Source: a virus | Lineage: Duplodnaviria; Heunggongvirae; Uroviricota; Caudoviricetes | Length of the DNA: 38,838 nucleotides | Virus record (IMG/VR): IMGVR_UViG_2718217859_000004 | Span: 1-38,838 of that record | Reading direction: 5' to 3' (one strand) | The notes under the pieces: generated by a model | Seen by the model: the letters and a program-made list of their open reading frames with translations, nothing else | The model's database searches: none | What the model was told of the DNA's origin: nothing | Translations under genes and position numbers: made by a program | Shown here: positions 4,081 through 38,838 of the stretch, piece after piece | How the letters are laid out: each line of letters begins with the position of its first letter | Numbering within the stretch: the first letter of the stretch is position 1

Positions 4081-5092
4081 AAAGGTGAAAACCGGCAGTT
4101 CATCCAGTAAGTCAGTATTGACCTGGCTTGCTGATATGTGCGGTGCCGATTTGTGTGCATACCCGTCTGTATCTGCACTGGCAGAAGTAACGGAACTGAA
4201 CAAAAAGACTGTGCAGGACAGCTTACGACACCTGATGGAGATTGGGTTAATTGTTGATACCGGTGAGAGAAAAGGCCGAACAAAGCAAATTGTGGTGTAC
4301 CGACTTATCGGTGTTGAAGAAAGTGTTGCCGAGCCTGAATACCCCCAAAAACGGGGGGCTTTAAAGGTGGGTAAAATTGGTACTGTTAATAAGAACAGTA
4401 CTGAAAATGGTTATGTTTCAGCACAAAACAGACCCAAAAACGGAACTCTTAGATGCATGGAAAATAACCAAAGACACCCAAATTTTCCATCAAAGACACC
4501 CAAAAACGGATCACGGAACCCAAAGGAACCCAAAGATCTAAACCCCACACATAACTCACGCGAGAGTGCTCCGACCTGTGAGCAGGAAGTTTTGTCGTTA
4601 CAGGCTGCACCCCCTGTATTCCTGGATGGCCTGAGCGAACCCATCGGAAAATTTCCGATGACCGATAGCTGGTATCCGTCACGGGATTTTCGACGACGGG
4701 CTGCGTTGTGGGGGATAGCTTTGCCGGAGACAGAATTTACACCTGCTGAACTTGCCGCCTTCCGGGACTACTGGGCAGCGGAGGGGAAAGTGTTTACGCA
4801 GATTCAGTGGGAGCAGAAATTCGCCCGTCACGTAAATCACGTCAGGGCGCAGGTTAAACCAGTCAGCAAGGGGGTAAACCATGCAGCAGCACCAGGTGGC
4901 ACCGCATCACGGGCAGTTCAGGAAATTCGGGCAGCACGTGAGCAGTGGGAACGTGAAAACGGATTTATCAGCGACGGAAACGGCCTGGAAGCTGTGGGAA
5001 CTCATGGGGGAGGTTTATTCGAACCGCTGGACCCAGAAGAACGGGGCCGCACCTTCGAAGCTCTGGATTGCACAGATTGGCGCGATGACTGA
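4052..5092 (+). CDS. Replication initiation protein (lambda O-like, HTH / DnaT-like domain)
   Basis: ATG at 4052 with AGGAG at 4043-4047; MSIDALRWAKKVKTGSSSSKSVLTWLADMCGADLCAYPSVSALAEVTELNKKTVQDSLRHLMEIGLIVD... typical of phage replication initiators; 3' end uncertain because of overlap with the P-like ORF. Confidence 0.7.
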   Translation: MSIDALRWAKKVKTGSSSSKSVLTWLADMCGADLCAYPSVSALAEVTELNKKTVQDSLRHLMEIGLIVDTGERKGRTKQIVVYRLIGVEESVAEPEYPQKRGALKVGKIGTVNKNSTENGYVSAQNRPKNGTLRCMENNQRHPNFPSKTPKNGSRNPKEPKDLNPTHNSRESAPTCEQEVLSLQAAPPVFLDGLSEPIGKFPMTDSWYPSRDFRRRAALWGIALPETEFTPAELAAFRDYWAAEGKVFTQIQWEQKFARHVNHVRAQVKPVSKGVNHAAAPGGTASRAVQEIRAAREQWERENGFISDGNGLEAVGTHGGGLFEPLDPEERGRTFEALDCTDWRDD

Positions 5093-27616: not shown

Positions 27617-28199
27617 CGATATCAGGAGCATACTGCCGGTCAGTGCCAGCCGGGCAGAGCGGGTGGTGGACTGTGTCGCCGGAGATATGCTGTCAGACAT
27701 AGCGGTCTGCCTGATCCGCTATGTTAAAAATCCCGATTTATGTCCTGCTGAATTGCTGCCATGGCTGGCCTGGGAAATGGCGGTGGACACCTGGAATGAA
27801 CACTGGACGGAGGCGGAAAAACGGTCTGCGATAAAACGTGCTGCTTACATCCACCGCCACAGAGGGACTAAAGCGGCGCTGATAGCATCGCTGGCTGACA
27901 GTCCCTTCCGGTCGAAGATTGTTGAGTGGTATGAGCAGACCCCACCCGGGGAGCCGTATACCTTTCGTCTGAACGTGGAGCAGAAGGATTTACCGGTGCT
28001 GATGAATGATCATCAGGATCTGAAGCATGCGGTACTCCGTGCCAAAAATCTGCGCAGCTGGTTCAGTATTCACGTTTACGGGAACAGCACAGGGCGGGTA
28101 TTTGGTTACGGCTATGTGATGGCGACAGAAAAAATCAGAAGTACTGGTGTGATAACAAAGACAGTGCCCACTGGCGGGCAGAGTGAGGCAGGAGTATGA
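27609..28199 (+). CDS. Tail protein I (P2 gpI-like)
   Basis: Position and size after J; start overlaps J stop. Confidence 0.75.
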   Translation: MNDDIRSILPVSASRAERVVDCVAGDMLSDIAVCLIRYVKNPDLCPAELLPWLAWEMAVDTWNEHWTEAEKRSAIKRAAYIHRHRGTKAALIASLADSPFRSKIVEWYEQTPPGEPYTFRLNVEQKDLPVLMNDHQDLKHAVLRAKNLRSWFSIHVYGNSTGRVFGYGYVMATEKIRSTGVITKTVPTGGQSEAGV

Positions 28200-29455
28200 A
28201 TGGACTGATTCTGACAACGTCCGGCGCTGCAGAAATTGAAGCAGCATATCAGAACGGGCAAACCGTGACCGTCCGGCATGTTCTGCTTGGTGACGGGGGC
28301 GGGCGGGCATTGCCTTCCACGCCGGATGAAATGGCAGCAATGACATCGTTGTACGGCGAATTCGGGCAGGAACCCTTTTCCGACGGTGCGGTGGAGGAGG
28401 GCTTCATCAGCGGGGATATTGTGATTGACTGTAAATCATACCCCGGTAAAACCCTTCGTGAACTGGGGATGATCAGCGACAGAGGTACGCTTATCGCGTA
28501 CGGACGTTATCCCGACACCTTTTTACCAGACCAGACGGACTCCGTTATCAAGGAAGTTATTCTGACGCTGGTTCTTGGGCTGACGCACGCACAAAACGTG
28601 GTGCTGGAAGTTGATCCGGACAGGGCAATTATTACTCAGGAAATCGGAGACAGACGCTATCTGCAACGAAAAAAGAATCTTTCGGATGTGGAAGACAGTG
28701 ATGAGGCTGTTGAAAACCTCGGATTAAAACCCACGGTGGACAAGGCAAAAAATGCCGTTCAGCGTGATGGCGACACCATGAGCGGGGAACTGAAAATCCG
28801 TGGTGTTAATGCGCTGAGGATTTTCAACGAAGCATTTGGTCTGATTTTTCGTCGTTCGGAAGAGTTCCTGCACCTTATTCCTACCAGTGAAGGTCAGGGC
28901 GAGAATGGCGATATTGGCCCACTGCGACCGTTCAGCATTAACCTGCGGACGGGTGAAATATCCATGTCGCATAAAGTGTCTGTTGGCGGCGGTTCTCAGG
29001 TCAATGGTGCGCTGGGTATCGGCGTTCAGAACGCACTGGGCGGAAACTCAATTGCTTTCGGGGATAACGATACCGGCCTGAAACAGAATGGTGACGGCCT
29101 GCTGGATGTTTATGCCAATGGTCAGCACGTATTCCGTTTTCAGAATGGCGCGTTACAAAGTAACCAGGCAGTGAATGTTTCAGGGCGGGTAACACCGTCA
29201 GACTACGGAAACTTCGATGCACGTTACGCAAAAACAGGGGCCAGTATCACTTCTGTAAGGCTGGGGTCAAGACAAAGCTACTCCCCCGCAGGTAACTGGT
29301 ATACCTGGACGCAGGACCTTGGTAGCGGAAACGTCATGACCGGGATAATCGTTCAGGATACTGGCGACAATTCTGCAGATAACATTGGTGGTATTTATTA
29401 CCGGACCATTCAGTATTGTGTGAATGGTACCTGGATGAATGTATCGTCGATATGA
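28196..29455 (+). CDS. Tail fibre protein with P2 gpH-like N-terminal domain
   Basis: N-terminus TSGAAEIEAAYQNGQTVTVRHVLLGDGGG...ELGMISDRGTLIAYGRYP parallels P2 H (TTAGAAKLAAA...VGDGGG...ELGLYDDAGTLIAV); divergent C-terminal receptor-binding region. Confidence 0.8.
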   Translation: MNGLILTTSGAAEIEAAYQNGQTVTVRHVLLGDGGGRALPSTPDEMAAMTSLYGEFGQEPFSDGAVEEGFISGDIVIDCKSYPGKTLRELGMISDRGTLIAYGRYPDTFLPDQTDSVIKEVILTLVLGLTHAQNVVLEVDPDRAIITQEIGDRRYLQRKKNLSDVEDSDEAVENLGLKPTVDKAKNAVQRDGDTMSGELKIRGVNALRIFNEAFGLIFRRSEEFLHLIPTSEGQGENGDIGPLRPFSINLRTGEISMSHKVSVGGGSQVNGALGIGVQNALGGNSIAFGDNDTGLKQNGDGLLDVYANGQHVFRFQNGALQSNQAVNVSGRVTPSDYGNFDARYAKTGASITSVRLGSRQSYSPAGNWYTWTQDLGSGNVMTGIIVQDTGDNSADNIGGIYYRTIQYCVNGTWMNVSSI

Positions 29456-29481
29456 ATTCGCGTAAAAGAACGGTAAACACC

Positions 29482-30009
29482 ATGATAAACATTAAAAACT
29501 TCAGAGAATACACACCGGAAAATCCACCAGTAGCGTGGGCGTTATATCTCATCAGTGAGGATGGTCAGGACTGGTATGAATGCCAGAAACAGTTTGCGAC
29601 GAATACATACAAAATCATGTATGACAGTAATAACATTGTCCGCAGCATTACAACCGATGTTTCTGCGCTCTGTCCACTTAATGCAAGTGTTACCGAACTG
29701 GATGTACTTCCTGATGGTGTGAATATTGATGGTGGATGGTATTACCAGGACGGCGAAGTGCTGCCTGTGCCAGTGGATTATGTGGCCAAAGCAGAGGCAG
29801 AACGTCAGCGTCTGCTGATGACGGCACAGGATATCACATCCGGTTGGGCTACCGACCTGGCGCTGGGCATTCTCAGTGATGAAGAAAAAGAAAAACTGAA
29901 AGTCTGGCGCATTTACGCGAAATCGTTGCAGGCGTTGGATTTCAGCGCAATTGCAGACAAGACTGCTTACGACAATATTGGCTGGCCGGAGCAGCCACAA
30001 AATACCTGA
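29482..30009 (+). CDS. Tail fibre assembly chaperone (P2 gpG / Tfa family)
   Basis: MINIKNF...ISEDGQDWYECQKQF...KIMYDSNNIVRSITTDVSAL parallels P2 G (MQHLKNIK...SEDGKNWYEEVKNF...KIVYDENNIIVAITRDAS); alternative start 29452 (ATGA overlap with fibre stop). Confidence 0.8.
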   Translation: MINIKNFREYTPENPPVAWALYLISEDGQDWYECQKQFATNTYKIMYDSNNIVRSITTDVSALCPLNASVTELDVLPDGVNIDGGWYYQDGEVLPVPVDYVAKAEAERQRLLMTAQDITSGWATDLALGILSDEEKEKLKVWRIYAKSLQALDFSAIADKTAYDNIGWPEQPQNT

Positions 30010-30063: not shown

Positions 30064-31539
30064 ATGTCCGGACTACATGGTGTTGAAACCATTGAACTGA
30101 CAACAGGCACGGTTGCCGTGCAGACCATCTCCACGGCAGTGATTGGCCTGGTGGGGACCGCACCGGACGCCTCTGGTGGCCTGTGCGCTTCCGGCACTGC
30201 CGGATCGTGGCTGCTGGGAACGGCGCTGGATTTCACGGCGAAACAGGAAGGCAGGGCCGGCAATAAGATTTCGGTGGTTGCCGTCGCTGCCACAGAACAA
30301 AGTGCGCAGACTACGGCCGCGCTGGAAGGTATAACCCTGACGATAACGCTGGGGACGGACGAACACAGCCAGGTTAACGCCACGGTGAACAGTGTGACTG
30401 AAGCGGTGAATGCGCTGGGGGATTCGCCTGTGACGGCGGCTGTCAGCTCCCTGAATGCAGGAGGCGCTGAAAATAATGTGGTGTCGCCGTTCAGCCTGAC
30501 GTTATCCGGCGGGGAAGATGAGGCGTTCCCGGTCAATACACCGGTGGTGGTGGCAGGGGCCATTACTCAGGCAGGGAAACTGGGCACAGCCGGAACATTA
30601 TACCCGGCCCTGCGTGATATTTTTGACCAGACTGGTGCGCTGGTGATTGTTGTGCGCGCAGAAAGTAAAACAAAGGCGAAAGAGGGCGAACAGCGTGCGG
30701 CGGTGATTCAGGCCATGGAGGCGCTGACAGAAAGTAAGGGCGTGACAGGCTATCAACCGCGCATCCTCATTGCCACGGGGTACAGTGAGGATGATGGCGT
30801 GGCAAAGGCGCTGGAAACGTATGCCGCGAAGCTGCGGGCTGTGGCCTATATTGACTCGCCCTCAATGGCAACGCCGCAGGATGTGGTTCAGCGGCGCGCG
30901 TCATTTGGCGGGCGTGTGGAGCTGCTGCGTCCGCGCGTGTCAGTGACGGATGACAGCGGGCAAACGATATTTCGTCCATATTCGGCTCGTGCTGCCGGGC
31001 TGCGTGCCCGTATTGATTACGAAAAAGGGTGGTGGTGGTCCAAATCAAACCAGGACGTGATGAATATCACCGGTATGGAGCAGGTGGACACATTTATTCT
31101 CGGGGAGCAGAACTGCACGGCAAACCTGCTGAACATGGAAAATATCTCCACCATTATTCGCCATGACGGTTTTAAACACTGGGGGAACCGTCTGTGCACA
31201 TCCCACAGTCAGTGGCGTTTTGAGCCGGTACGCCGCACTGCAGATGTGATTGAGGACAGCATCCAGGAGGCCATGCTGCCTTATGTCGATCGCCCGCTTG
31301 ATCGGGATGTGGCAGACGACATTCTTGGCAGCATTAATGCCTATATGCGTCAGCTTAAAAATCTGGGCGCGATCCACGGTGGCAGTGCATGGCTGAACGA
31401 TGAACTGAACACAGCAGAAACCCTGGCGGCAGGGCAGTTGTATATCGATTATGACTTTGGGCCGAAGTCACCACTGGAGCGCCTGACACTGCGGGCAATG
31501 ATTAACAATAAACTGGCGCTGGAGGAACTGACGGTATGA
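30064..31539 (+). CDS. Contractile tail sheath protein (P2 FI-like) with an internal insertion
   Basis: C-terminal half RIDYEKGWWWSKSN...IRHDGFKHWGNRLCTS...LYIDYDFGPKSPLERLTLR aligns with P2 FI (KIDQEQGWHKTLSN...IRRDGFRFWGNRTCSD...LYIDYDYTPVPPLENLTLR); ~95 aa longer than P2 FI. Confidence 0.85.
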   Translation: MSGLHGVETIELTTGTVAVQTISTAVIGLVGTAPDASGGLCASGTAGSWLLGTALDFTAKQEGRAGNKISVVAVAATEQSAQTTAALEGITLTITLGTDEHSQVNATVNSVTEAVNALGDSPVTAAVSSLNAGGAENNVVSPFSLTLSGGEDEAFPVNTPVVVAGAITQAGKLGTAGTLYPALRDIFDQTGALVIVVRAESKTKAKEGEQRAAVIQAMEALTESKGVTGYQPRILIATGYSEDDGVAKALETYAAKLRAVAYIDSPSMATPQDVVQRRASFGGRVELLRPRVSVTDDSGQTIFRPYSARAAGLRARIDYEKGWWWSKSNQDVMNITGMEQVDTFILGEQNCTANLLNMENISTIIRHDGFKHWGNRLCTSHSQWRFEPVRRTADVIEDSIQEAMLPYVDRPLDRDVADDILGSINAYMRQLKNLGAIHGGSAWLNDELNTAETLAAGQLYIDYDFGPKSPLERLTLRAMINNKLALEELTV

Positions 31540-32054
31540 TGACGGGTGAAAAAAAACTGTTGCGCGCATGGGCGTTATTTCTTCCTGGCGGGATCCGCCT
31601 TCAGGGGGCGCATGAATACACGCCGCCTGCGATTAATATCACGACAGTGGATATCAAAACCGGCGCAATGGATGCACCGGTGGCAGTGGATGACGGCATG
31701 GAAGCGCTGACCTGTTCGTTTAAGATTTATGGTTATGATGTTGCCATGCTTACGCTGCTGGGATTACAGGCCGGGCTTTATTCGCCGGAGATCGTTGTCC
31801 GCCAGGGTTACCAGGTGGGGAATGCGACCAGCGGACAGGTGGAAACCCTGCAGGGAATGATCACCAGTATCACGCCGGATGCACGTCCGGCAACGTCACA
31901 GGCAGAGGCTTCGGTGACGGTGGAAATGTCGCTGAGTTATTACCGTCAGACTGTCGACGGTGTGGAAACCATCTGCATTATTCCGGAGGAATTTGTGCGT
32001 CGTATTAACGGCGTTAATGTTCTGTCAGATCTGAAAAAAATCATTCGGGTTTAA
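31536..32054 (+). CDS. Tail tube protein (P2 FII-like)
   Basis: 172 aa, same as P2 FII; C-terminus INGVNVLSDLKKIIRV vs VNGVDRLEQHRRNIGL; start overlaps sheath stop. Confidence 0.8.
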   Translation: MMTGEKKLLRAWALFLPGGIRLQGAHEYTPPAINITTVDIKTGAMDAPVAVDDGMEALTCSFKIYGYDVAMLTLLGLQAGLYSPEIVVRQGYQVGNATSGQVETLQGMITSITPDARPATSQAEASVTVEMSLSYYRQTVDGVETICIIPEEFVRRINGVNVLSDLKKIIRV

Positions 32055-32114: not shown

Positions 32115-32417
32115 ATGTCGGAAAAAAACAGTGTTCCTGCCAGCAGCGTGGAAATTGTGTTATCCGTGCCGTATGTCACCGCATCAGGACAGACGATCAC
32201 ACACATCACCATGCGTGCGCCTACCGTTCGCGATCGTCTGTTGCATCGCCGGAGCACTAAGCCGGAAGCAGAGGCCGATCTGGATATGATTGCCGGTCTG
32301 TGTGGGATGGACGCGGCAGACATGATGAATATGGAAGCGTGCGATTACCTGGCTCTGGAGCGGCAGTTTAATGTTTTTTTGCTGCCGCCGGTCCGGCGGA
32401 AGAAGAAAACATCCTGA
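32115..32417 (+). CDS. Tail assembly chaperone (P2 gpE-like), zero-frame product
   Basis: ATG 32115 six nt after AAGGAG; ends ...FNVFLLPPVRRKKKTS; located between tube and tape-measure genes. Confidence 0.75.
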   Translation: MSEKNSVPASSVEIVLSVPYVTASGQTITHITMRAPTVRDRLLHRRSTKPEAEADLDMIAGLCGMDAADMMNMEACDYLALERQFNVFLLPPVRRKKKTS

Positions 32418-32554
32418 TGGCGATACGGCGCGCCGGTGCCTGGTTAGGGTGGTCTCCCGTGGATGTGATGGCGCTGCCGTATGAGGATTTTGTGACAATG
32501 ATGCTGGCAGAGTCGGAGGAGAGGAAGCAACGTTATGGCAACGGTTGGCGATAA
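32115..32554 (+). CDS. Tail assembly chaperone frameshift product (P2 gpE+E'-like), -1 shift at T_TTT_TTG (32375-32381)
   Basis: Slippery heptamer T TTT TTG in the E frame; the -1 frame continues stop-free for 57 codons (AAAGPAEEENILMAIRRAGAWLGWSPVDVMALPYEDFVTMMLAESEERKQRYGNGWR) to TAA at 32552-32554, overlapping the tape-measure start. Confidence 0.7.
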
Positions 32555-34187
32555 CCTTAAAGCGAATATCCGGATCGGCGGCACGATAGATCCGTCGTGG
32601 AAAAATTCTGTTAATGGACTGAAAAAGGGCCTTTCCGGAGCCACGCGTGAAGTGGCTCGTCTGACACGCCAGCAGGACGTACTGAAACGAAAAATCCAGG
32701 CTGGCGTACTGGCTGGACAGGATATTACTGAACTGCGAAAGCAGTATGAAAAGCTGGGTAAAAAAATCCATAATGCCACCGCTGAGCAGGACAGATTTAA
32801 CCGCGAACTGGCGCGTGCGGAACGTCTGGCTCGCTGGAAAGGGCGTGGAACGACAGCCCTGAAAGTGGGGGGCGGGCTTTCAGTCGGGGCAGGACTGACA
32901 CTGGCAGGCGCTGCAGGTGCAGCACTTAGCCGGAACAGTGAAACGGCAGAGCGGGCAGGGATAGCCCGCAGTTATGGGGTGGATTATGAAACCTATGCGT
33001 CATGGGATTCTCTGGCCCGACTGATGGGGCTGAACGGTGAAAACATCGGTGATCTGTTTGAGGAGTACCGGAACAAGGTTTTTGACGATGATAATGGTGC
33101 CACGGATAAAGGGGCCATTCAGGAGGTCTTTGGAAAACTGGGACTGAAAGCCGGGGTGATGGCAGGGAAAAGTAACCAGGAGCAGGTCGAATTTTTATTT
33201 GATCGCTTACTGCAGGTAGAGAATGAACAGGTGGCAGCCGGGATGGCAGATGCGTTGTTCGGTGGTGAGGCCAATAAAATTCTGACCTGGATGCGTCTGT
33301 CAGGGAAAACTTACCGGGAGCTTATCAGTGAGCAGAAACGCTATAACCTGGTGACAAAGGCCGGGGCTGATGGTGCAGTTCAGGGACATGTGGCACTGTC
33401 AAATCTCCGTAATGTTCTGAGTTCTTCCATTGATGAAATCAGCGGACAGCTGGGTAATGAACTTGCCCCACGTATCCAACAGGTGACGGATGATCTTGCG
33501 GCCTGGTTTAAGGAGGGGGGCCTTGAGAAGATTCAGGCATTTATCCTTGATGATGCCCTGCCGGCGTTGATCGACTTGTCCGAGTGGATGTGGAAATTCG
33601 GAAAAGTTCTTGCAGGAATAACGCAGAAAGCCATTGAGTGGGGGCTGGCGGATGATTCGCGAGAGGACCGGCGAGAGGTGCTGGAATATCTGGCAAAAAT
33701 GGGGTCGCCTGAGCTGGCGAGAGCGGTGGCGCAGAAAAACGGTCAGGGTGAATGGTTTGATGAACTGCTCAGGCAAAATCCGGACCTGACGAAACAGGTT
33801 GTACAGGCTTATAAAGACACTCGCGGTTATCTCCCCTGGAACCATGACGATAAAAAGTTTGATGCATTTCTCGATCCTTTGCTGGGACCGAAGGAAGAAC
33901 CTGATTTTAAGGCGATAAAAGAGAAATCCCGCACCTACATTGACGGACTTCCTGCGGCTGGTCAGGGACAGGAAAATCCTGATCGCCTTTCAGCTCTCCA
34001 GTATACACCCGGCAGTATCAGCCAGGTGGAAGTAAAACCCACGTATCAGATACGGGCGGAATTCAACATTACCCAGAAACCTGGCGAGGATGCCGGACAA
34101 CTTGCAGACAGGGTGATGAAAAATCTGGGGGATATTAATTTTGGCCAGCGTTCCCGTATGACTGATGGTTATGAATCCTGGGGGTGA
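32535..34187 (+). CDS. Tail tape measure protein
   Basis: 550 aa, helical, Gly/Ala-rich central segment; canonical position after the chaperone pair. Confidence 0.8.
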   Translation: MATVGDNLKANIRIGGTIDPSWKNSVNGLKKGLSGATREVARLTRQQDVLKRKIQAGVLAGQDITELRKQYEKLGKKIHNATAEQDRFNRELARAERLARWKGRGTTALKVGGGLSVGAGLTLAGAAGAALSRNSETAERAGIARSYGVDYETYASWDSLARLMGLNGENIGDLFEEYRNKVFDDDNGATDKGAIQEVFGKLGLKAGVMAGKSNQEQVEFLFDRLLQVENEQVAAGMADALFGGEANKILTWMRLSGKTYRELISEQKRYNLVTKAGADGAVQGHVALSNLRNVLSSSIDEISGQLGNELAPRIQQVTDDLAAWFKEGGLEKIQAFILDDALPALIDLSEWMWKFGKVLAGITQKAIEWGLADDSREDRREVLEYLAKMGSPELARAVAQKNGQGEWFDELLRQNPDLTKQVVQAYKDTRGYLPWNHDDKKFDAFLDPLLGPKEEPDFKAIKEKSRTYIDGLPAAGQGQENPDRLSALQYTPGSISQVEVKPTYQIRAEFNITQKPGEDAGQLADRVMKNLGDINFGQRSRMTDGYESWG

Positions 34188-34189
34188 AG

Positions 34190-34678
34190 ATGGTGGATTT
34201 ACTGGGCTGGGGCGTAAACCGGCTTGAGCGCGAAGCATGGGACGCAGTGGGCTCATTAACGGAGGTGGCTTCCCGCGTCATGCTGTCGTTTGGTGAGTTT
34301 GAATTCAGTATCGATACGGCAGCGTATAACGCCATGAAGCGCACGATGGAATGGCGATGGGATGAACAACAGCTTATCGGAAAAAACGACCTGCTGCAGT
34401 ATACCGGCAAGGGGGCCAGAACGATAACCCTTGAAGGTATGGTGCATGCGGGATTTCGTGACGGTGTGGGAATGGATGCCCTTGATACACTGGTTCAGAT
34501 GGTGGATGACAATCCGGCCCCGCATCTTCTGGTCTCGTGCACAGGTGATGTGATGGGGTATTTCGTGGCAACCGCCTATTCAGATAACACCACCTCCTTT
34601 CTTCCCGGCGGTGCGCCAAAGAATAAAACGTTCACTCTGGAGCTGAAATACTATGGCGAAAAACTGGCGGACCACTGA
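34190..34678 (+). CDS. Tail protein U (P2 gpU-like)
   Basis: ATG 34190 after GGGGG (alt. GTG 34184 overlapping tape-measure stop); size and position match P2 U. Confidence 0.65.
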   Translation: MVDLLGWGVNRLEREAWDAVGSLTEVASRVMLSFGEFEFSIDTAAYNAMKRTMEWRWDEQQLIGKNDLLQYTGKGARTITLEGMVHAGFRDGVGMDALDTLVQMVDDNPAPHLLVSCTGDVMGYFVATAYSDNTTSFLPGGAPKNKTFTLELKYYGEKLADH

Positions 34679-34871
34679 CGGCGATATGCTGGATGACATC
34701 TGTCAGAGGCACTATGGCAGTGCCGGGCTTAACCAGTCACTGGCGGCGGTACTGGAGGCTAATCCGGGGCTGGCTGACCTTGGTCCGGTCTGTCCGGCGG
34801 GAGTGGAAATCGTGTTGCCGGACTGGGTATATGAACCGGAAGTGAAGGAGACGTTTCAGTTATGGGAGTGA
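34653..34871 (+). CDS. Tail protein X (P2 gpX-like)
   Basis: 72 aa; DGDMLDDICQRHYG...LEANPGLADLGPVCPAGVEIVLPD...KETFQLWE parallels P2 X (QGDTLDAICVRYYG...LAANPGLAELGAVLPHGTAVELPD...TVNLWE). Confidence 0.8.
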   Translation: MAKNWRTTDGDMLDDICQRHYGSAGLNQSLAAVLEANPGLADLGPVCPAGVEIVLPDWVYEPEVKETFQLWE

Positions 34872-35950
34872 ATGAGTATCAGCCGGATTTCAGTCTGACA
34901 GCGGAAGGTCAGGATATCACGAAGGAAATAAAACGAGGTCTGGCTGAGCTGCGATATACCGATAATGGTGCTGGCACAAAGCGGTCCGATGAACTGATGA
35001 TAACGCTGTTCAGTGAGACGCTGGCGTTGCCCCCGAAAGGCGCGGTGCTAACGCTGGGACTGGGGTTCAACGGAAATCTGGTAAATAAAGGCAGCTTTAC
35101 CGTCTGTCAGGTGGCAAGTGGTGGCCCTCCCCGCCGGATCACCATTTATGCCACCGCAGCCCCCATGAATGCGTCAAAACATGGCGCGGACGTGACCGCA
35201 CTGAAAACCCGCGCTTTCAGTGATATCTCGCTGGGAGACCTGGTAAAAACCATCGCCACTGAAAATAATCTGGTGGCGCAGGTATCACCGGCGCTGGCTG
35301 GTATTCATATCCCGTGGGTGATGCAGTCATCAGAATCTGATGCAGCCCTCCTGTCCCGCATTGCAGGTATGTACGGTGCCACCAGTAAACCGACCAGTGG
35401 CTACTGGTTGTTTCTGGAATACGGGGCATCACAGAGTGCAGGGGGCAGAAATGCCCCTGAGATAACCATTACGCCGGGTATGGTATCAGACTGGGATTAT
35501 CGTGAAGGTGAGCGACAGGGCGCTGCGGGTGGCGGGAAAGATGGGAAAGTGGGTGTCCGGTATTTTGATGCCCGTGACGGACGCACACGTGAAGTTAAAG
35601 TTGACGTGGAGTCAACAGATAAGCGGCATCCGTTTACCCAGCCTGACCAGGGCACCGCAAAACACTGTGCAGAGTCGAAGGTTAAACGTGTGCAGAAAGC
35701 CGGACGCCTGATGACGATAACGTTGCCCTGCAGACCGGAACTGCTGAAAGCGGGGGCGGAGGTGCGTTTTATCACGCAGGGATTTGGTGTGCGTGAGGAC
35801 CATTACTGGCAGGCTGAATCGGTGGAGTTTTCACTGGCACCGGGGCAGGGATTTTCGCTGAATCTGTCGCTGACCACGGATATTTCCGCGAAAGGACAGG
35901 CATCAGGGAAGAAGAACGCGGATAAAAAAGGTGTCAATTATTTTGGTTAA
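34862..35950 (+). CDS. Tail protein D (P2 gpD-like, late control D family)
   Basis: 362 aa; position after X; start overlaps X stop. Confidence 0.75.
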   Translation: MGVNEYQPDFSLTAEGQDITKEIKRGLAELRYTDNGAGTKRSDELMITLFSETLALPPKGAVLTLGLGFNGNLVNKGSFTVCQVASGGPPRRITIYATAAPMNASKHGADVTALKTRAFSDISLGDLVKTIATENNLVAQVSPALAGIHIPWVMQSSESDAALLSRIAGMYGATSKPTSGYWLFLEYGASQSAGGRNAPEITITPGMVSDWDYREGERQGAAGGGKDGKVGVRYFDARDGRTREVKVDVESTDKRHPFTQPDQGTAKHCAESKVKRVQKAGRLMTITLPCRPELLKAGAEVRFITQGFGVREDHYWQAESVEFSLAPGQGFSLNLSLTTDISAKGQASGKKNADKKGVNYFG

Positions 35951-35974: not shown

Positions 35975-38248
35975 ATGTCTGTATTAATTTCGGGTGTGCT
36001 GACGGATGGTGCGGGGCTCCCCTTGTCCGGATACCATATTATTCTGAAAGCCTGGCAAAATACATCCGCAGTGGTCATGAGAACGGTGGCAACAGTGGTG
36101 ACAGGGCCGGCAGGAGAATATGCATTTGAAGCCCAGACCGGAAGATATGATGTTTATCTTCGTTCGTGTATTGAAAGAGAATATTGCGTCGGTGATATTT
36201 CGGTTTACGACGACTCAAAGCCCGGCACACTGAACGACTTTCTGACCGCCCTCGATGAAGGCGATTTAAAACCGGATGTAGTGAAACGCTTTGAGGAAAT
36301 GGTGGCGCAGGCGCAGCAGAGCGCGGAAGCAGCAGCGGAAAGCGAGCGACAGGCCGGGCAACATGTCGCTGATGCGCAGAAGATAAAGGAAGACTGCGAG
36401 ACGCTGGCGGATAACGTACAGCAGAATGCAGAAGCCGTTGCCGAAGACAAAAATCAGGTGGCGCTGCTGGCATCATCTGCCACACAGGATGCGGCCCGCG
36501 CAGAGCAGGCTGTCAAGGATGCCGACACGATAGTCCGGAAAGCGGTCGATAAACTTGCTGATGCTGCAACGCTGACCGGCGAGGCAAAAGCCAGTGCCGA
36601 AGCTGCCGCACAAAGCGAACAGAATGCGGAAAATCACGCTGATAATGCAGCACAAAGCGCACAGCAGACCGCGCAGGATGTGGAGGCAACGGTCACCGCC
36701 CGTGATGATGCGGAACGTTTTGCGGGTGAGGCAGAAAACAGCGCACAGTCATCAGGCACATCGCGGGATGAATCAGTCGATGCCGCCGAACGTGCCCGCC
36801 TTTATCATAATGCCGCATCATCAGCTGCAACCAGCGCGGAAAATGCAGCAAATGCTGCACTCGGGCATGAAAATAACGCTGCCGAATACGCCCGACAGGC
36901 TAAAGACAGCCAGGATGCAGGTGCAGACAATGCGCAGGAAGCGAAACAGTACAGGGATGAGGCGCAGCAGATAGTTGATGACCTGAATGCAACAAATGCC
37001 AGCACGACAGAAAAAGGTCTGGTGCAACTGTGTAGTGATACGGACAACGACAGCGATGAACTGGCTGCCACGCCAAAGGCTGTCAAAGCCGTCATGGACG
37101 AAACGAAAACAAAAGCGCCACTGGACAGCCCGGCCTTCACCGGCACCCCAACCACCCCAACCCCACCGGATGATGCCGCCGGTCTGGAAGCAGCGAACGC
37201 AGCGTTTGTGCGCAAACTGCTTGCTGCGCTGGTTGGCTCATCGCCGGAAGTTCTGGACACCCTGAACGAGCTGGCAGCGGCGCTGGGCAATGACCCGAAC
37301 TTTGCGACGACAATCACAAACGCGCTGGCAGGCAAACAACCGCTTAATGACGTCTTAACGGCAATCAGCGCACTGACGCAACGGGCAGATAATCTTCTGT
37401 ACTTCAATACAGACGGGAATGCCTCACTGTCTCTGCTGTCAGAGAAGGGCCGCGCATTGCTGGCGCATGACACGGCTGAAGCCATGCGCACGGAGCTTGA
37501 GCTGAGCGCGGCTGCGACGATGGAACCCCAGAGTGATATCCGTGACCGCACACCGGGCAGGCTGGCCCTGTCCGGGATGTATGGGTTTGGACAGGCATTC
37601 ACCAGCGCCGAAGCTCTGTCATTTAACGGACAGGCTGATTTCGTTATATGGCTGCAGACAGTCACCCCGGGGCGTTATGCGGTCAGTATTGCGGACTCCT
37701 CCACGCTGCTGGTGGGCACCACGAAATTTAACGGTATCATTGATGTGATGTGGTCACCCTCTGATAACGATGGTTCAGACTCAGCGCGTAAATTCAAAAT
37801 GCTGCTGTACTACAACCAGTATTACGAGGATGAGCACAGCATACATTGTATGCGTTATCGCTACAGTGGTAACAGCTGGAATGCAACATCAAGCCTTATT
37901 GTGTATGACGGTAGCTCACTGGCGTACTTGTTGTCCAGGACGGCGGGGTCAGGCTCATATTACAAATACCCGGCCGTCGGTGTGCCGATAATGGCGGTAT
38001 ATCAGGGGGAGAGTTTTGGTGCAGATGTGTCTCTGGGGCTCGGTGATACTGTGCCGGGTTCCCGTCTTGGCCCTCTGGCCATGAGTGCACGGATTAGCGA
38101 TACAGGGACATACCAGTCCTCACCGGTGGCTGTGATTGGCGGTGCCGGTGAATACAACTTCCCCGGTCGTTACGCGGCGCTTTCGGGGACCCGCATTAGT
38201 CACGATACAACGCGTGGCTATATTGGCCTTTTTGTACGCATTGAGTAA
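35975..38248 (+). CDS. Side tail fibre protein, lambda Stf-like (with P2 H-like central segment)
   Basis: N-terminus MSVLISGVLTDGAGLPLSGYHIILKAWQNTSAVV...ISVYDDSKPGTLNDFL parallels lambda Stf; central KGLVQLCSDTDNDSDELAATPKAVKAVMDETKTKAPLDSPAFTGTPT...LNELAAALGNDPNFATTITNALAGKQP matches the Stf/P2 H shared segment; Ala/Gln/Glu-rich helical shaft. Confidence 0.85.
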   Translation: MSVLISGVLTDGAGLPLSGYHIILKAWQNTSAVVMRTVATVVTGPAGEYAFEAQTGRYDVYLRSCIEREYCVGDISVYDDSKPGTLNDFLTALDEGDLKPDVVKRFEEMVAQAQQSAEAAAESERQAGQHVADAQKIKEDCETLADNVQQNAEAVAEDKNQVALLASSATQDAARAEQAVKDADTIVRKAVDKLADAATLTGEAKASAEAAAQSEQNAENHADNAAQSAQQTAQDVEATVTARDDAERFAGEAENSAQSSGTSRDESVDAAERARLYHNAASSAATSAENAANAALGHENNAAEYARQAKDSQDAGADNAQEAKQYRDEAQQIVDDLNATNASTTEKGLVQLCSDTDNDSDELAATPKAVKAVMDETKTKAPLDSPAFTGTPTTPTPPDDAAGLEAANAAFVRKLLAALVGSSPEVLDTLNELAAALGNDPNFATTITNALAGKQPLNDVLTAISALTQRADNLLYFNTDGNASLSLLSEKGRALLAHDTAEAMRTELELSAAATMEPQSDIRDRTPGRLALSGMYGFGQAFTSAEALSFNGQADFVIWLQTVTPGRYAVSIADSSTLLVGTTKFNGIIDVMWSPSDNDGSDSARKFKMLLYYNQYYEDEHSIHCMRYRYSGNSWNATSSLIVYDGSSLAYLLSRTAGSGSYYKYPAVGVPIMAVYQGESFGADVSLGLGDTVPGSRLGPLAMSARISDTGTYQSSPVAVIGGAGEYNFPGRYAALSGTRISHDTTRGYIGLFVRIE

Positions 38249-38262
38249 TGAGGAAATCAGGC

Positions 38263-38838
38263 ATGAAAATCAGAGCGGTGAAAGGCATCAGAAACGCACA
38301 TTATCTTGAAAATGGTGCGGTTGACTGCGAGGTGTTATTTGAAGGTGAAACGGAGTTCGCCCTGTATACTGCCATACAGGATGATATGGCCCCGACAGGC
38401 CAGCATGTCTGGCAGGAGCTGCAAAGCGGGAAATGGGGCGAAATCGCCCCGTTCACTGTCACGCCGGAACTTATTGCAGCGGCAAAGGATGCCAAAAGGC
38501 GGGAAATTGAGGCATGGCGCGACAGTCAGGAAAACATTGAGTTTATTTTCACGTTTGATGGCCGTCGTTTTGATGGCGGAAAAACCTCGCAGTCACGCCT
38601 TGCCCCCGTGGTTGCAGCAGCACAGGCCGGACTGCTTCCGGATGGTTTTTTCTGGACTGATGCGGATAATAACAACGTCGTACTGACCAGGGAGAAACTT
38701 ATTGCGCTGAACGATGCCATGATGGTGGCCATGGTGACGGAGGGTTTTAAAATCCACGAACGTCAGCGGGAGATGAAAGAGGAACTGAATAATCTTGATG
38801 ATTTACGCTCAATCCGAGCGTTTGACGTTACGCAATAA
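38263..38838 (+). CDS. Putative tail fibre assembly / chaperone protein (DUF4376-like), tentative
   Basis: ATG 38263 after AGGA (alt. ATG 38248 overlapping Stf stop); immediately downstream of the fibre gene; complete (TAA at 38836-38838). Confidence 0.45.
   Translation: MKIRAVKGIRNAHYLENGAVDCEVLFEGETEFALYTAIQDDMAPTGQHVWQELQSGKWGEIAPFTVTPELIAAAKDAKRREIEAWRDSQENIEFIFTFDGRRFDGGKTSQSRLAPVVAAAQAGLLPDGFFWTDADNNNVVLTREKLIALNDAMMVAMVTEGFKIHERQREMKEELNNLDDLRSIRAFDVTQ

Follow-up and report, generated by a model that had tools for sequence, protein, structure and literature searches.

We analysed a stretch of 38,838 nucleotides (nt) of viral DNA, IMG/VR record IMGVR_UViG_2718217859_000004 (hereafter the window, meaning the whole stretch), and focused on the short gene placed between its tail tube and tape-measure genes. 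Our results indicate that this gene (32115..32417) encodes a tail assembly chaperone of the phage P2 gpE type and that a -1 ribosomal slip at the heptamer T_TTT_TTG would yield two products, E and an E+E′ fusion, a reading to which we assign a probability of about 0.9. The predicted fusion, join(32115..32381, 32381..32554), is 146 amino acids long and carries the predicted junction peptide QFNVF[L/F]AAAGPAEEENILMAIR. The fusion product, the slip and its frequency, the junction residue and the binding partners are what we infer, chiefly by analogy with P2 and lambda (PMC3091744, PMC5009743). Recoding is the route by which nearly all long-tailed phages obtain their two tail chaperones, and the site in the window copies the solution of phage P2, being an unannotated member of a well-known kind.

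An earlier note on this DNA had called the gene gpE-like, and profile searches agreed with it. The E-like protein matched the Pfam family PF10109 (Phage_TAC_7) with 45.7 bits (cut-off 25; E=7e-12; residues 14-89 on profile positions 2-78), while PHROG 166 ('tail protein') matched the 100-amino-acid product with an E value of 1.5e-23. The title of PF10109 reads 'tail assembly chaperone proteins E, or 41 or 14', with Mu gp41 among its names, and RefSeq relatives of the protein carry the name 'phage tail assembly protein'. The open reading frame (ORF) starts at ATG 32115 (alternative ATG, 32109), has an AAGGAG ribosome-binding site upstream and stops at TGA 32415..32417. Near its end, the E frame reads GT[T TTT TTG] (GTT TTT TTG, Val-Phe-Leu), which is the canonical X_XXY_YYZ register of a slippery heptamer. 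Eleven sense codons separate the TTG of the heptamer from the stop and the TGA is the 12th codon, the same distance that the earlier note had counted. That note had also described a -1 frame open for 57 codons and ending in the start region of the tape-measure gene. This holds as well: the -1 frame is closed by a TAA at 32369..32371, opens at 32372, one codon ahead of the heptamer, and continues through the sense codons of E′ (32381..32551) to a TAA located 20 nt inside the tape-measure ORF, whose ATG is at 32535. In most lineages of relatives the -1 frame likewise opens just one codon upstream of the heptamer and, therefore, no other slip point is available.

We then considered whether the heptamer could be there by chance. 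Within the window, TTTTTTG alone occurs at chance frequency (13 copies observed against 11 expected) and, therefore, its significance rests on the context. We also screened the 110 six-frame ORFs of at least 80 amino acids in the window for a slippery heptamer that lies in frame within the final 20 codons and is followed by a -1 extension of at least 30 codons. Just 2 of them presented this arrangement, the E-like gene and an ORF on the antisense strand within the U gene. The final 50 codons of E contained no further X_XXY_YYZ heptamer. Near the start of the gene, the A_AAA_AAC found in frame at 32123..32129 (E codons 3-5) was evaluated as an additional slip site; its -1 frame stops after about 45 codons and its residues are unconserved in relatives, indicating that it is probably incidental.

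The E and E+E′ proteins of P2, from the FETUD tail operon (Christie et al. 2002, as cited in PMC3091744 and PMC5009743), served as the reference for this site. In P2, a shift at TTTTTTG produces a 91-amino-acid E and a 142-amino-acid E+E′ (PMC3091744), and the P2 record NC_001895 annotates the E+E′ coding sequence as a join with '-1 translational frameshift'. The comparison with the P2 junction, which the earlier note had recommended, revealed the same heptamer, the same register, the same profile column and the same extension length. Specifically, the P2 DNA reads GG[T TTT TTG] (GGT TTT TTG), identical to the window in heptamer and register, and P2 gpE belongs to the same Pfam family with a similar score (47.8 bits versus 45.7 for the window protein). 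For both proteins, the last matched position of PF10109 is 78, which falls on the Leu of the heptamer TTG and places the slip site at a homologous column. The extension after the slip is equally long in P2 and the window (58 codons) and ends inside the tape-measure gene in both, 8 nt from its start in P2. Also alike is the genomic position, since both chaperone genes lie between the tube and the tape measure of a contractile-tail module with U and D downstream. The two systems differ in other respects. Compared pairwise, the two fusion proteins are not significantly similar (BLASTP E=0.85), the zero-frame tail past the heptamer spans 11 codons in the window and 6 in P2, and the tape-measure protein has 550 amino acids in the window versus 815 in P2. 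In addition, the window carries an X gene between U and D, and in its lambdoid prophage the tail module is combined with a lambda-like head.

Conservation analyses were performed on relatives retrieved by megablast of complete E. coli genomes and by pattern scans of GTDB genomes and IMG/VR, together with two metagenome contigs. Megablast located the module in 73 out of 5,426 complete E. coli genomes (about 1.3%), with identities of 80-95%. The enterobacterial set comprised 34 distinct sequences from seven or so lineages (E. coli prophages, IMG/VR contigs, Trabulsiella, Cedecea, Dryocola and two metagenome lineages), whose E proteins were 50-99% identical; start-codon and CTGGAG counts were each taken from 32 distinct sequences. 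All 34 enterobacterial relatives presented TTTTTT[G/A] at the same codon. The codon ahead of the heptamer varied between GTT (Val), GCT (Ala) and GAT (Asp), while its third-position T was always kept. Since the amino acid changes but the T does not, selection appears to act on the nucleotide sequence. The -1 extension measured 56-62 codons in all the enterobacterial relatives, and the RRxGxWFGWxP...P..F...E..ER motif of E′ was kept even in those with an E only 50-55% identical. Among deposited phage genomes, megablast found no close relatives and the best tblastn match reached at most 42.5% identity.

To establish the coding capacity of E′, we counted substitutions by codon position and calculated the ratio of nonsynonymous to synonymous polymorphism (pN/pS) in three frames along the stretch that belongs to E′ only (32420..32534). 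Substitutions at codon positions 1, 2 and 3 of the E′ frame numbered 8, 8 and 36, respectively, and pN/pS was 0.25 in that frame versus 1.90 and 1.95 in the other two. A third-position bias was likewise present in the E-only part and in the tape-measure start, each in its own frame. Judging from these substitution patterns, the E′ extension is coding and under purifying selection in the -1 frame. The assertion of the earlier note that the arrangement is conserved is thus borne out, the extension being kept in both length and sequence across relatives. Furthermore, the stretch in which E and E′ overlap showed 7 substitution states in 33 nt, compared with 101 in the 257 nt of the E-only part and 52 in the 115 nt of the E′-only part. 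The overlap is, therefore, around half as variable as either flank, as dual coding predicts. In the zero frame, L90, P91, P92 and R95 were invariant among six proteins 53-96% identical, within a conserved LLPPxxR tail.

These data bear on a trivial explanation, namely that E and E′ are a single gene broken by a homopolymer sequencing error or by mutation, or that a chance heptamer happens to lie beside a non-coding spacer. Homopolymer runs are indeed error-prone and the heptamer alone is no more frequent than chance allows. Nevertheless, over 40 independent assemblies, complete genomes included and belonging to several genera, share the two-frame layout, the LLPPxxR tail is conserved and E′ is under purifying selection in its own frame. 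Because of this conservation and of the selection in both frames, an artefact or pseudogene can be excluded for practical purposes. The features discussed here are listed in Table 1.

Table 1. Position of the predicted chaperone products, the candidate recoding signals and the tail genes around them in the window.
Feature	Position	Strand	Evidence and remarks
E-like tail assembly chaperone gene, zero frame	32115..32417	+	Product of 100 amino acids; PF10109 and PHROG 166 matches
Slippery heptamer T_TTT_TTG, proposed -1 slip site	32375..32381	+	Register check, P2 match, conservation
E′ extension, -1 frame after the predicted slip	32381..32554	+	57 sense codons (AAAGPAEEENILMAIRRAGAWLGWSPVDVMALPYEDFVTMMLAESEERKQRYGNGWR), then TAA 32552..32554; codon-position substitutions, pN/pS, motif conservation
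Dual-coding overlap	32382..32414	+	Zero frame LPPVRRKKKTS (E tail); -1 frame, E′ start
ATG in the E′ frame overlapping the E stop (UGAUG)	32417..32419	+	ORF 32417..32554, 45 amino acids; ATG not conserved
Candidate GC hairpin CCGCCG-GUC-CGGCGG, 3 nt past the heptamer	32385..32399	+	Predicted minimum free energy fold; not established
Candidate internal Shine-Dalgarno-like GGAG in CTG GAG (Leu-Glu), 14 nt upstream of the heptamer	32357..32360	+	Conservation; speculative
Tail sheath gene (FI-like)	30064..31539	+	PF04984, PF17482, PF22671
Tail tube gene (FII-like), directly upstream of the chaperone gene	31536..32054	+	PF04985 Phage_tube, E=1.4e-23
Tape-measure gene (T-like, 550 amino acids), first 20 nt overlapping the E′ end	32535..34187	+	phrog_3654 and six tape-measure PHROGs
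Tail genes resembling U, X and D, following the tape-measure gene	34184..35950	+	Pfam matches; RefSeq relatives annotated likewise

According to the mechanism that we favour, most ribosomes would end translation at TGA 32415 and release the 100-amino-acid protein, while a minority would slip back one nucleotide on U_UUU_UUG (32375..32381). During the slip, tRNA-Phe would re-pair from UUU to UUU in the P site and tRNA-Leu from UUG to UUU in the A site; alternatively, the slip would involve the P site alone. The slipped ribosomes would read 57 more codons up to TAA 32552, producing the E+E′ protein with the same N-terminus as E. By analogy with E/E+E′ of P2 and G/GT of lambda, the shared N-terminal part would coat the tape-measure protein encoded directly downstream and the rarer E′ extension would recruit the tube subunit. 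A fixed slip frequency would set the chaperone ratio needed for a tail of the correct length, and neither protein would form part of the virion. The two forms of the slip would leave different residues at the junction: a tandem slip would give the tryptic peptide QFNVFLAAAGPAEEENILMAIR, while a P-site-only slip would give QFNVFFAAAGPAEEENILMAIR.

The latter peptide would also result from transcriptional slippage, in which the RNA polymerase, rather than the ribosome, generates the same fusion by adding one U to the run of T. Seven consecutive T (32374..32380) span the heptamer region in the window, so that one extra U would put E′ in frame, giving ...NVFFAAAG, and both slippage mechanisms are able to act at one site (PMC5009743). 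However, the lineages carrying GCT or GAT ahead of the heptamer, as well as P2, have six T only. Since the run length varies, the conserved element is the register of the heptamer and not the length of the run. Runs of 6-7 T are also shorter than those known for efficient slippage in E. coli. In addition, the P2 event has been described as translational (PMC3091744). Altogether, this makes a transcriptional origin of the fusion highly improbable.

Several observations weigh against a ribosomal -1 slip as proposed here, and they concern the stimulatory signals, the possible independent start of E′, the identity of E′ and the variation of the heptamer in distant phages. Regarding the first, neither single-sequence folds nor shuffles nor an alignment fold found a conserved RNA stimulator, such as the stem-loop or pseudoknot that sites of the dnaX or IS911 type have 5-9 nt past the heptamer. 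The candidate GC hairpin is present in the E. coli and Trabulsiella group, while a long stem of another kind occurs in the Cedecea and Dryocola group. The region around the hairpin was no more stable than shuffled sequence (z values of -1.2 and -0.4), most fold z values being insignificant, and the fold consensus of the alignment was weak (-8.1 kcal/mol) with little covariation. Because the hairpin lies within dual-coding sequence, its conservation is uninformative. Being unshared between groups, with minimal covariation and in a dual-coding region, it was rejected as an established stimulator. On the other hand, P2-type sites have been reported without such structures (PMC3091744) and some phage tail shifts need no stimulator (PMC5009743). 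Upstream of the heptamer, the CTGGAG hexanucleotide was invariant in 32 out of 32 distinct aligned sequences, distant ones included. Internal Shine-Dalgarno sequences act as frameshift stimulators in the dnaX-type mechanism, and the GGAG at 32357..32360 might, speculatively, play a similar role, although such a function is inseparable from the amino-acid constraint on this Leu-Glu pair.

Secondly, an ATG overlaps the E stop codon in the window and in 9 out of 34 distinct sequences, so that some free E′ could be made. This led us to consider that E′ might be produced exclusively as a free 45-amino-acid peptide from ATG 32417, through termination-reinitiation coupling and with no frameshift. The overlapping ATG occurs in 8 out of 32 distinct close relatives, a second lineage presents it as UAAUG (locus L092, positions 1800-1802), and RefSeq and other gene callers sometimes call the ORF as a 45-amino-acid 'hypothetical protein'. 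In contrast, most E. coli relatives have a Thr codon (ACG or ACA) at this position and Trabulsiella a Leu codon (CTG), and ATG 32417 lacks a good Shine-Dalgarno sequence ahead. Moreover, 22 out of 32 sequences had no ATG, GTG or TTG before the RRxGxWFGWxP motif, and Dryocola (L004) had none in the whole -1 ORF. Production of E′ only as a free peptide would also leave the conservation of the heptamer and of the overlap region unexplained. As the ATG is not conserved, we rejected it as a general route to E′ and regard this explanation as very unlikely, retaining the -1 slip on the heptamer as the probable source of E′.

Thirdly, the sequence of E′ gave a limited link to the P2 extension family. 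The window E′ yielded no match to PF06528 (Phage_P2_GpE) even at E≤10, and the best score in a relative was 13.4 bits (cut-off 23). PHROGs and NCBIfam hold no model matching E′, and a PDB sequence search with the window sequence found nothing. When the enterobacterial E′ profile was aligned with the P2 E′ profile using hhalign, the expected register was obtained with a P value of 0.0025 and a probability of 12%; after the extensions of Pseudomonas relatives were added to the E′ profile, the probability rose to 88.6% (P=2.6e-6, 28 columns). The homology of E′ to P2 E′ thus rests on the motif and one profile-profile result. A deep phmmer search with E′ retrieved 6 representatives among 1.84 billion proteins and no bridge to PF06528, a scarcity that fits an ORF that gene callers rarely can start. 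The AlphaFold2 model of the fusion had a mean predicted local distance difference test (pLDDT) score of 69 (about 80 in the E part and about 60 in E′). A structural match to a solved chaperone such as that of HK97 (PDB 2OB9) was also sought with Foldseek; the top PDB match, the HK97 tail assembly chaperone, was not significant (E=0.91; template modelling (TM) score 0.25-0.31). From these profile comparisons, E′ can be described as a remote, uncatalogued relative of P2 E′, with membership of its family not demonstrated.

Finally, the nearest isolated phages, Hafnia phage yong2 (L094:1453-1631) and Citrobacter phage Chris1 (L095:1444-1625), whose E proteins are 40-42% identical to that of the window, share the order of tube, E, -1-frame E′ (57-58 codons) and tape measure, and keep the E′ motif. 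Their site, however, reads GTT TTT ATG (T_TTT_ATG), which keeps the U_UUU element of the P site with no re-pairing in the A site and cannot support a tandem slip. This leaves the choice between a tandem and a P-site-only mechanism uncertain, and suggests that P-site slippage of tRNA-Phe on U_UUU is the core event and may be sufficient by itself.

The genes surrounding the chaperone follow the order sheath, tube, E, tape measure, U, X and D and, by their family matches, are a P2-type contractile-tail module. The ATG of the tape-measure gene is preceded by a GGAGGAG ribosome-binding site. The best match of its protein was phrog_3654, a family with unassigned function (E=7.8e-209), followed by six PHROGs named 'tail length tape measure protein' (E values from 2.3e-10 to 4.7e-4); Pfam and NCBIfam gave no match to it. 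RefSeq names this protein 'phage tail tape measure protein' in some genomes and 'hypothetical protein' in most. Downstream, matches were obtained to PF06995 GpU (E=2.5e-27), PF05489 tail protein X (E=5.6e-19) and, weakly, PF05954 GPD (E=5.5e-4). The first 25 kb of the window match lambdoid prophages and the P2-like contractile tail follows, as in a mosaic element. In the annotated relative L091 (E. coli OkiPb01676, 42.6 kb), the head genes of the prophage are lambda-like and comprise terminase, portal, S49 protease, decoration protein, major capsid and FI. This prophage adjoins a truncated ompW and the trp operon, and bears subtilase AB5 toxin genes upstream of its lysis genes. The window also contains two separate tail-fibre loci. 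The one at 28196-30009, before the sheath gene, encodes a tail-collar fibre and its assembly protein, while the one at 35975-38838, after the D-like gene, encodes a fibre of 757 amino acids whose N-terminal domain is of the lambda Stf type (PF08400); the next ORF is called DUF4376 in relatives.

The practical value of these results is one of annotation. In the RefSeq and GenBank relatives inspected, the extension corresponds to an empty gap of about 117 nt or to a 45-amino-acid 'hypothetical protein', and slippage is never marked; the yong2 and Chris1 records have no frameshift annotated either. This variant of E′ also escapes the models of Pfam, PHROGs and NCBIfam. As E′ is unannotated, an essential tail protein would be missing from the proteome annotation of a prophage clade that includes, in one inspected relative, subtilase-toxin genes.

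Phages are already known to differ in their use of -1, -2 or +1 shifts (PMC5009743). In lambda, ribosomes that slip by -1 close to the end of the gene preceding the tape-measure gene produce GT besides G, at a fixed ratio and with the same N-terminus; the tape measure is bound by the short part and the tube protein by the extension, and neither product is found in the virion (PMC5009743). The layout of the window shares this logic, and lambda differs in having another slippery sequence and a non-contractile tail; no sequence similarity to lambda G was detected, although no search aimed at it was made. P2-type sites are reported to shift 2-3 times more often than the roughly 1:30 of lambda (PMC5009743). 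In Mu, the extension is reached by a reported -2 shift (PMC5009743). When we inspected the Mu region from the end of gene 41 to the tape-measure gene (L096:2853-3110), the +1 frame after CGG GGG CGA was seen to encode AIGVILKSGPEWALSLPLSRFFRH, similar to LPYEDFV in the E′ motif of the window clade; the Mu extension carries the related stretch ...LSLPLSRFF. This is in keeping with the -2 shift reported for Mu and suggests a common extension domain across users of -1, -2 and +1 shifts.

A further variant was observed in prophages or tailocins of Pseudomonas, whose chaperones are about 30% identical to that of the window and also belong to PF10109 (loci L005-L016 and L051-L085, around locus positions 4260-4360; for instance, L006:4262-4362). 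In these loci, an E′-like domain (...KRLAKELGFSSAEIMSMSFSDMIWWLTD) with the related motif G[FW]xPxE[IV]MxMxxxD follows the stop without a gap and is read in the +1 frame. No X_XXY_YYZ heptamer was found in the Pseudomonas loci. Instead, 39 out of 47 presented NUU_UGA, 32 of them as CTT TGA C/T, which corresponds to a +1 site of the release factor 2 (RF2, prfB) type. The +1 ORF showed a third-position bias (39/29/65 substitutions at the three codon positions), and its start was not conserved, with none before the motif in 7 out of 24 distinct sequences. Judging by this sequence pattern, Pseudomonas ribosomes apparently enter the extension through a +1 shift on NUU_UGA, at the stop codon itself. 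A literature search on +1 frameshifting in Pseudomonas tailocin chaperones returned nothing relevant. Mu and Pseudomonas differ from the window in that a U-rich heptamer with a -1 slip is used in neither of them.

Altogether, these comparisons allow us to propose, tentatively and at less than even odds, that the site of the window may represent one form of a recoding junction that has moved during the evolution of the PF10109 family and gives access to a homologous E′ domain, with a -1 slip on T_TTT_TT[G/A] in the window, P2 and other enterobacterial prophages, a P-site-only slip on T_TTT_ATG in yong2 and Chris1, and an RF2-like +1 shift at NUU_UGA in Pseudomonas; in a smaller variant of this proposal, the window would make E, E+E′ and also free E′ via UGAUG. 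If true, the +1 shift at the stop codon in Pseudomonas would make the ratio of the chaperones depend on how efficiently translation terminates. Within one family, the sites compared here (the -1 heptamer, its degenerate form and the +1 site at the stop) offer a compact natural series for the study of how recoding sites change frame in evolution.

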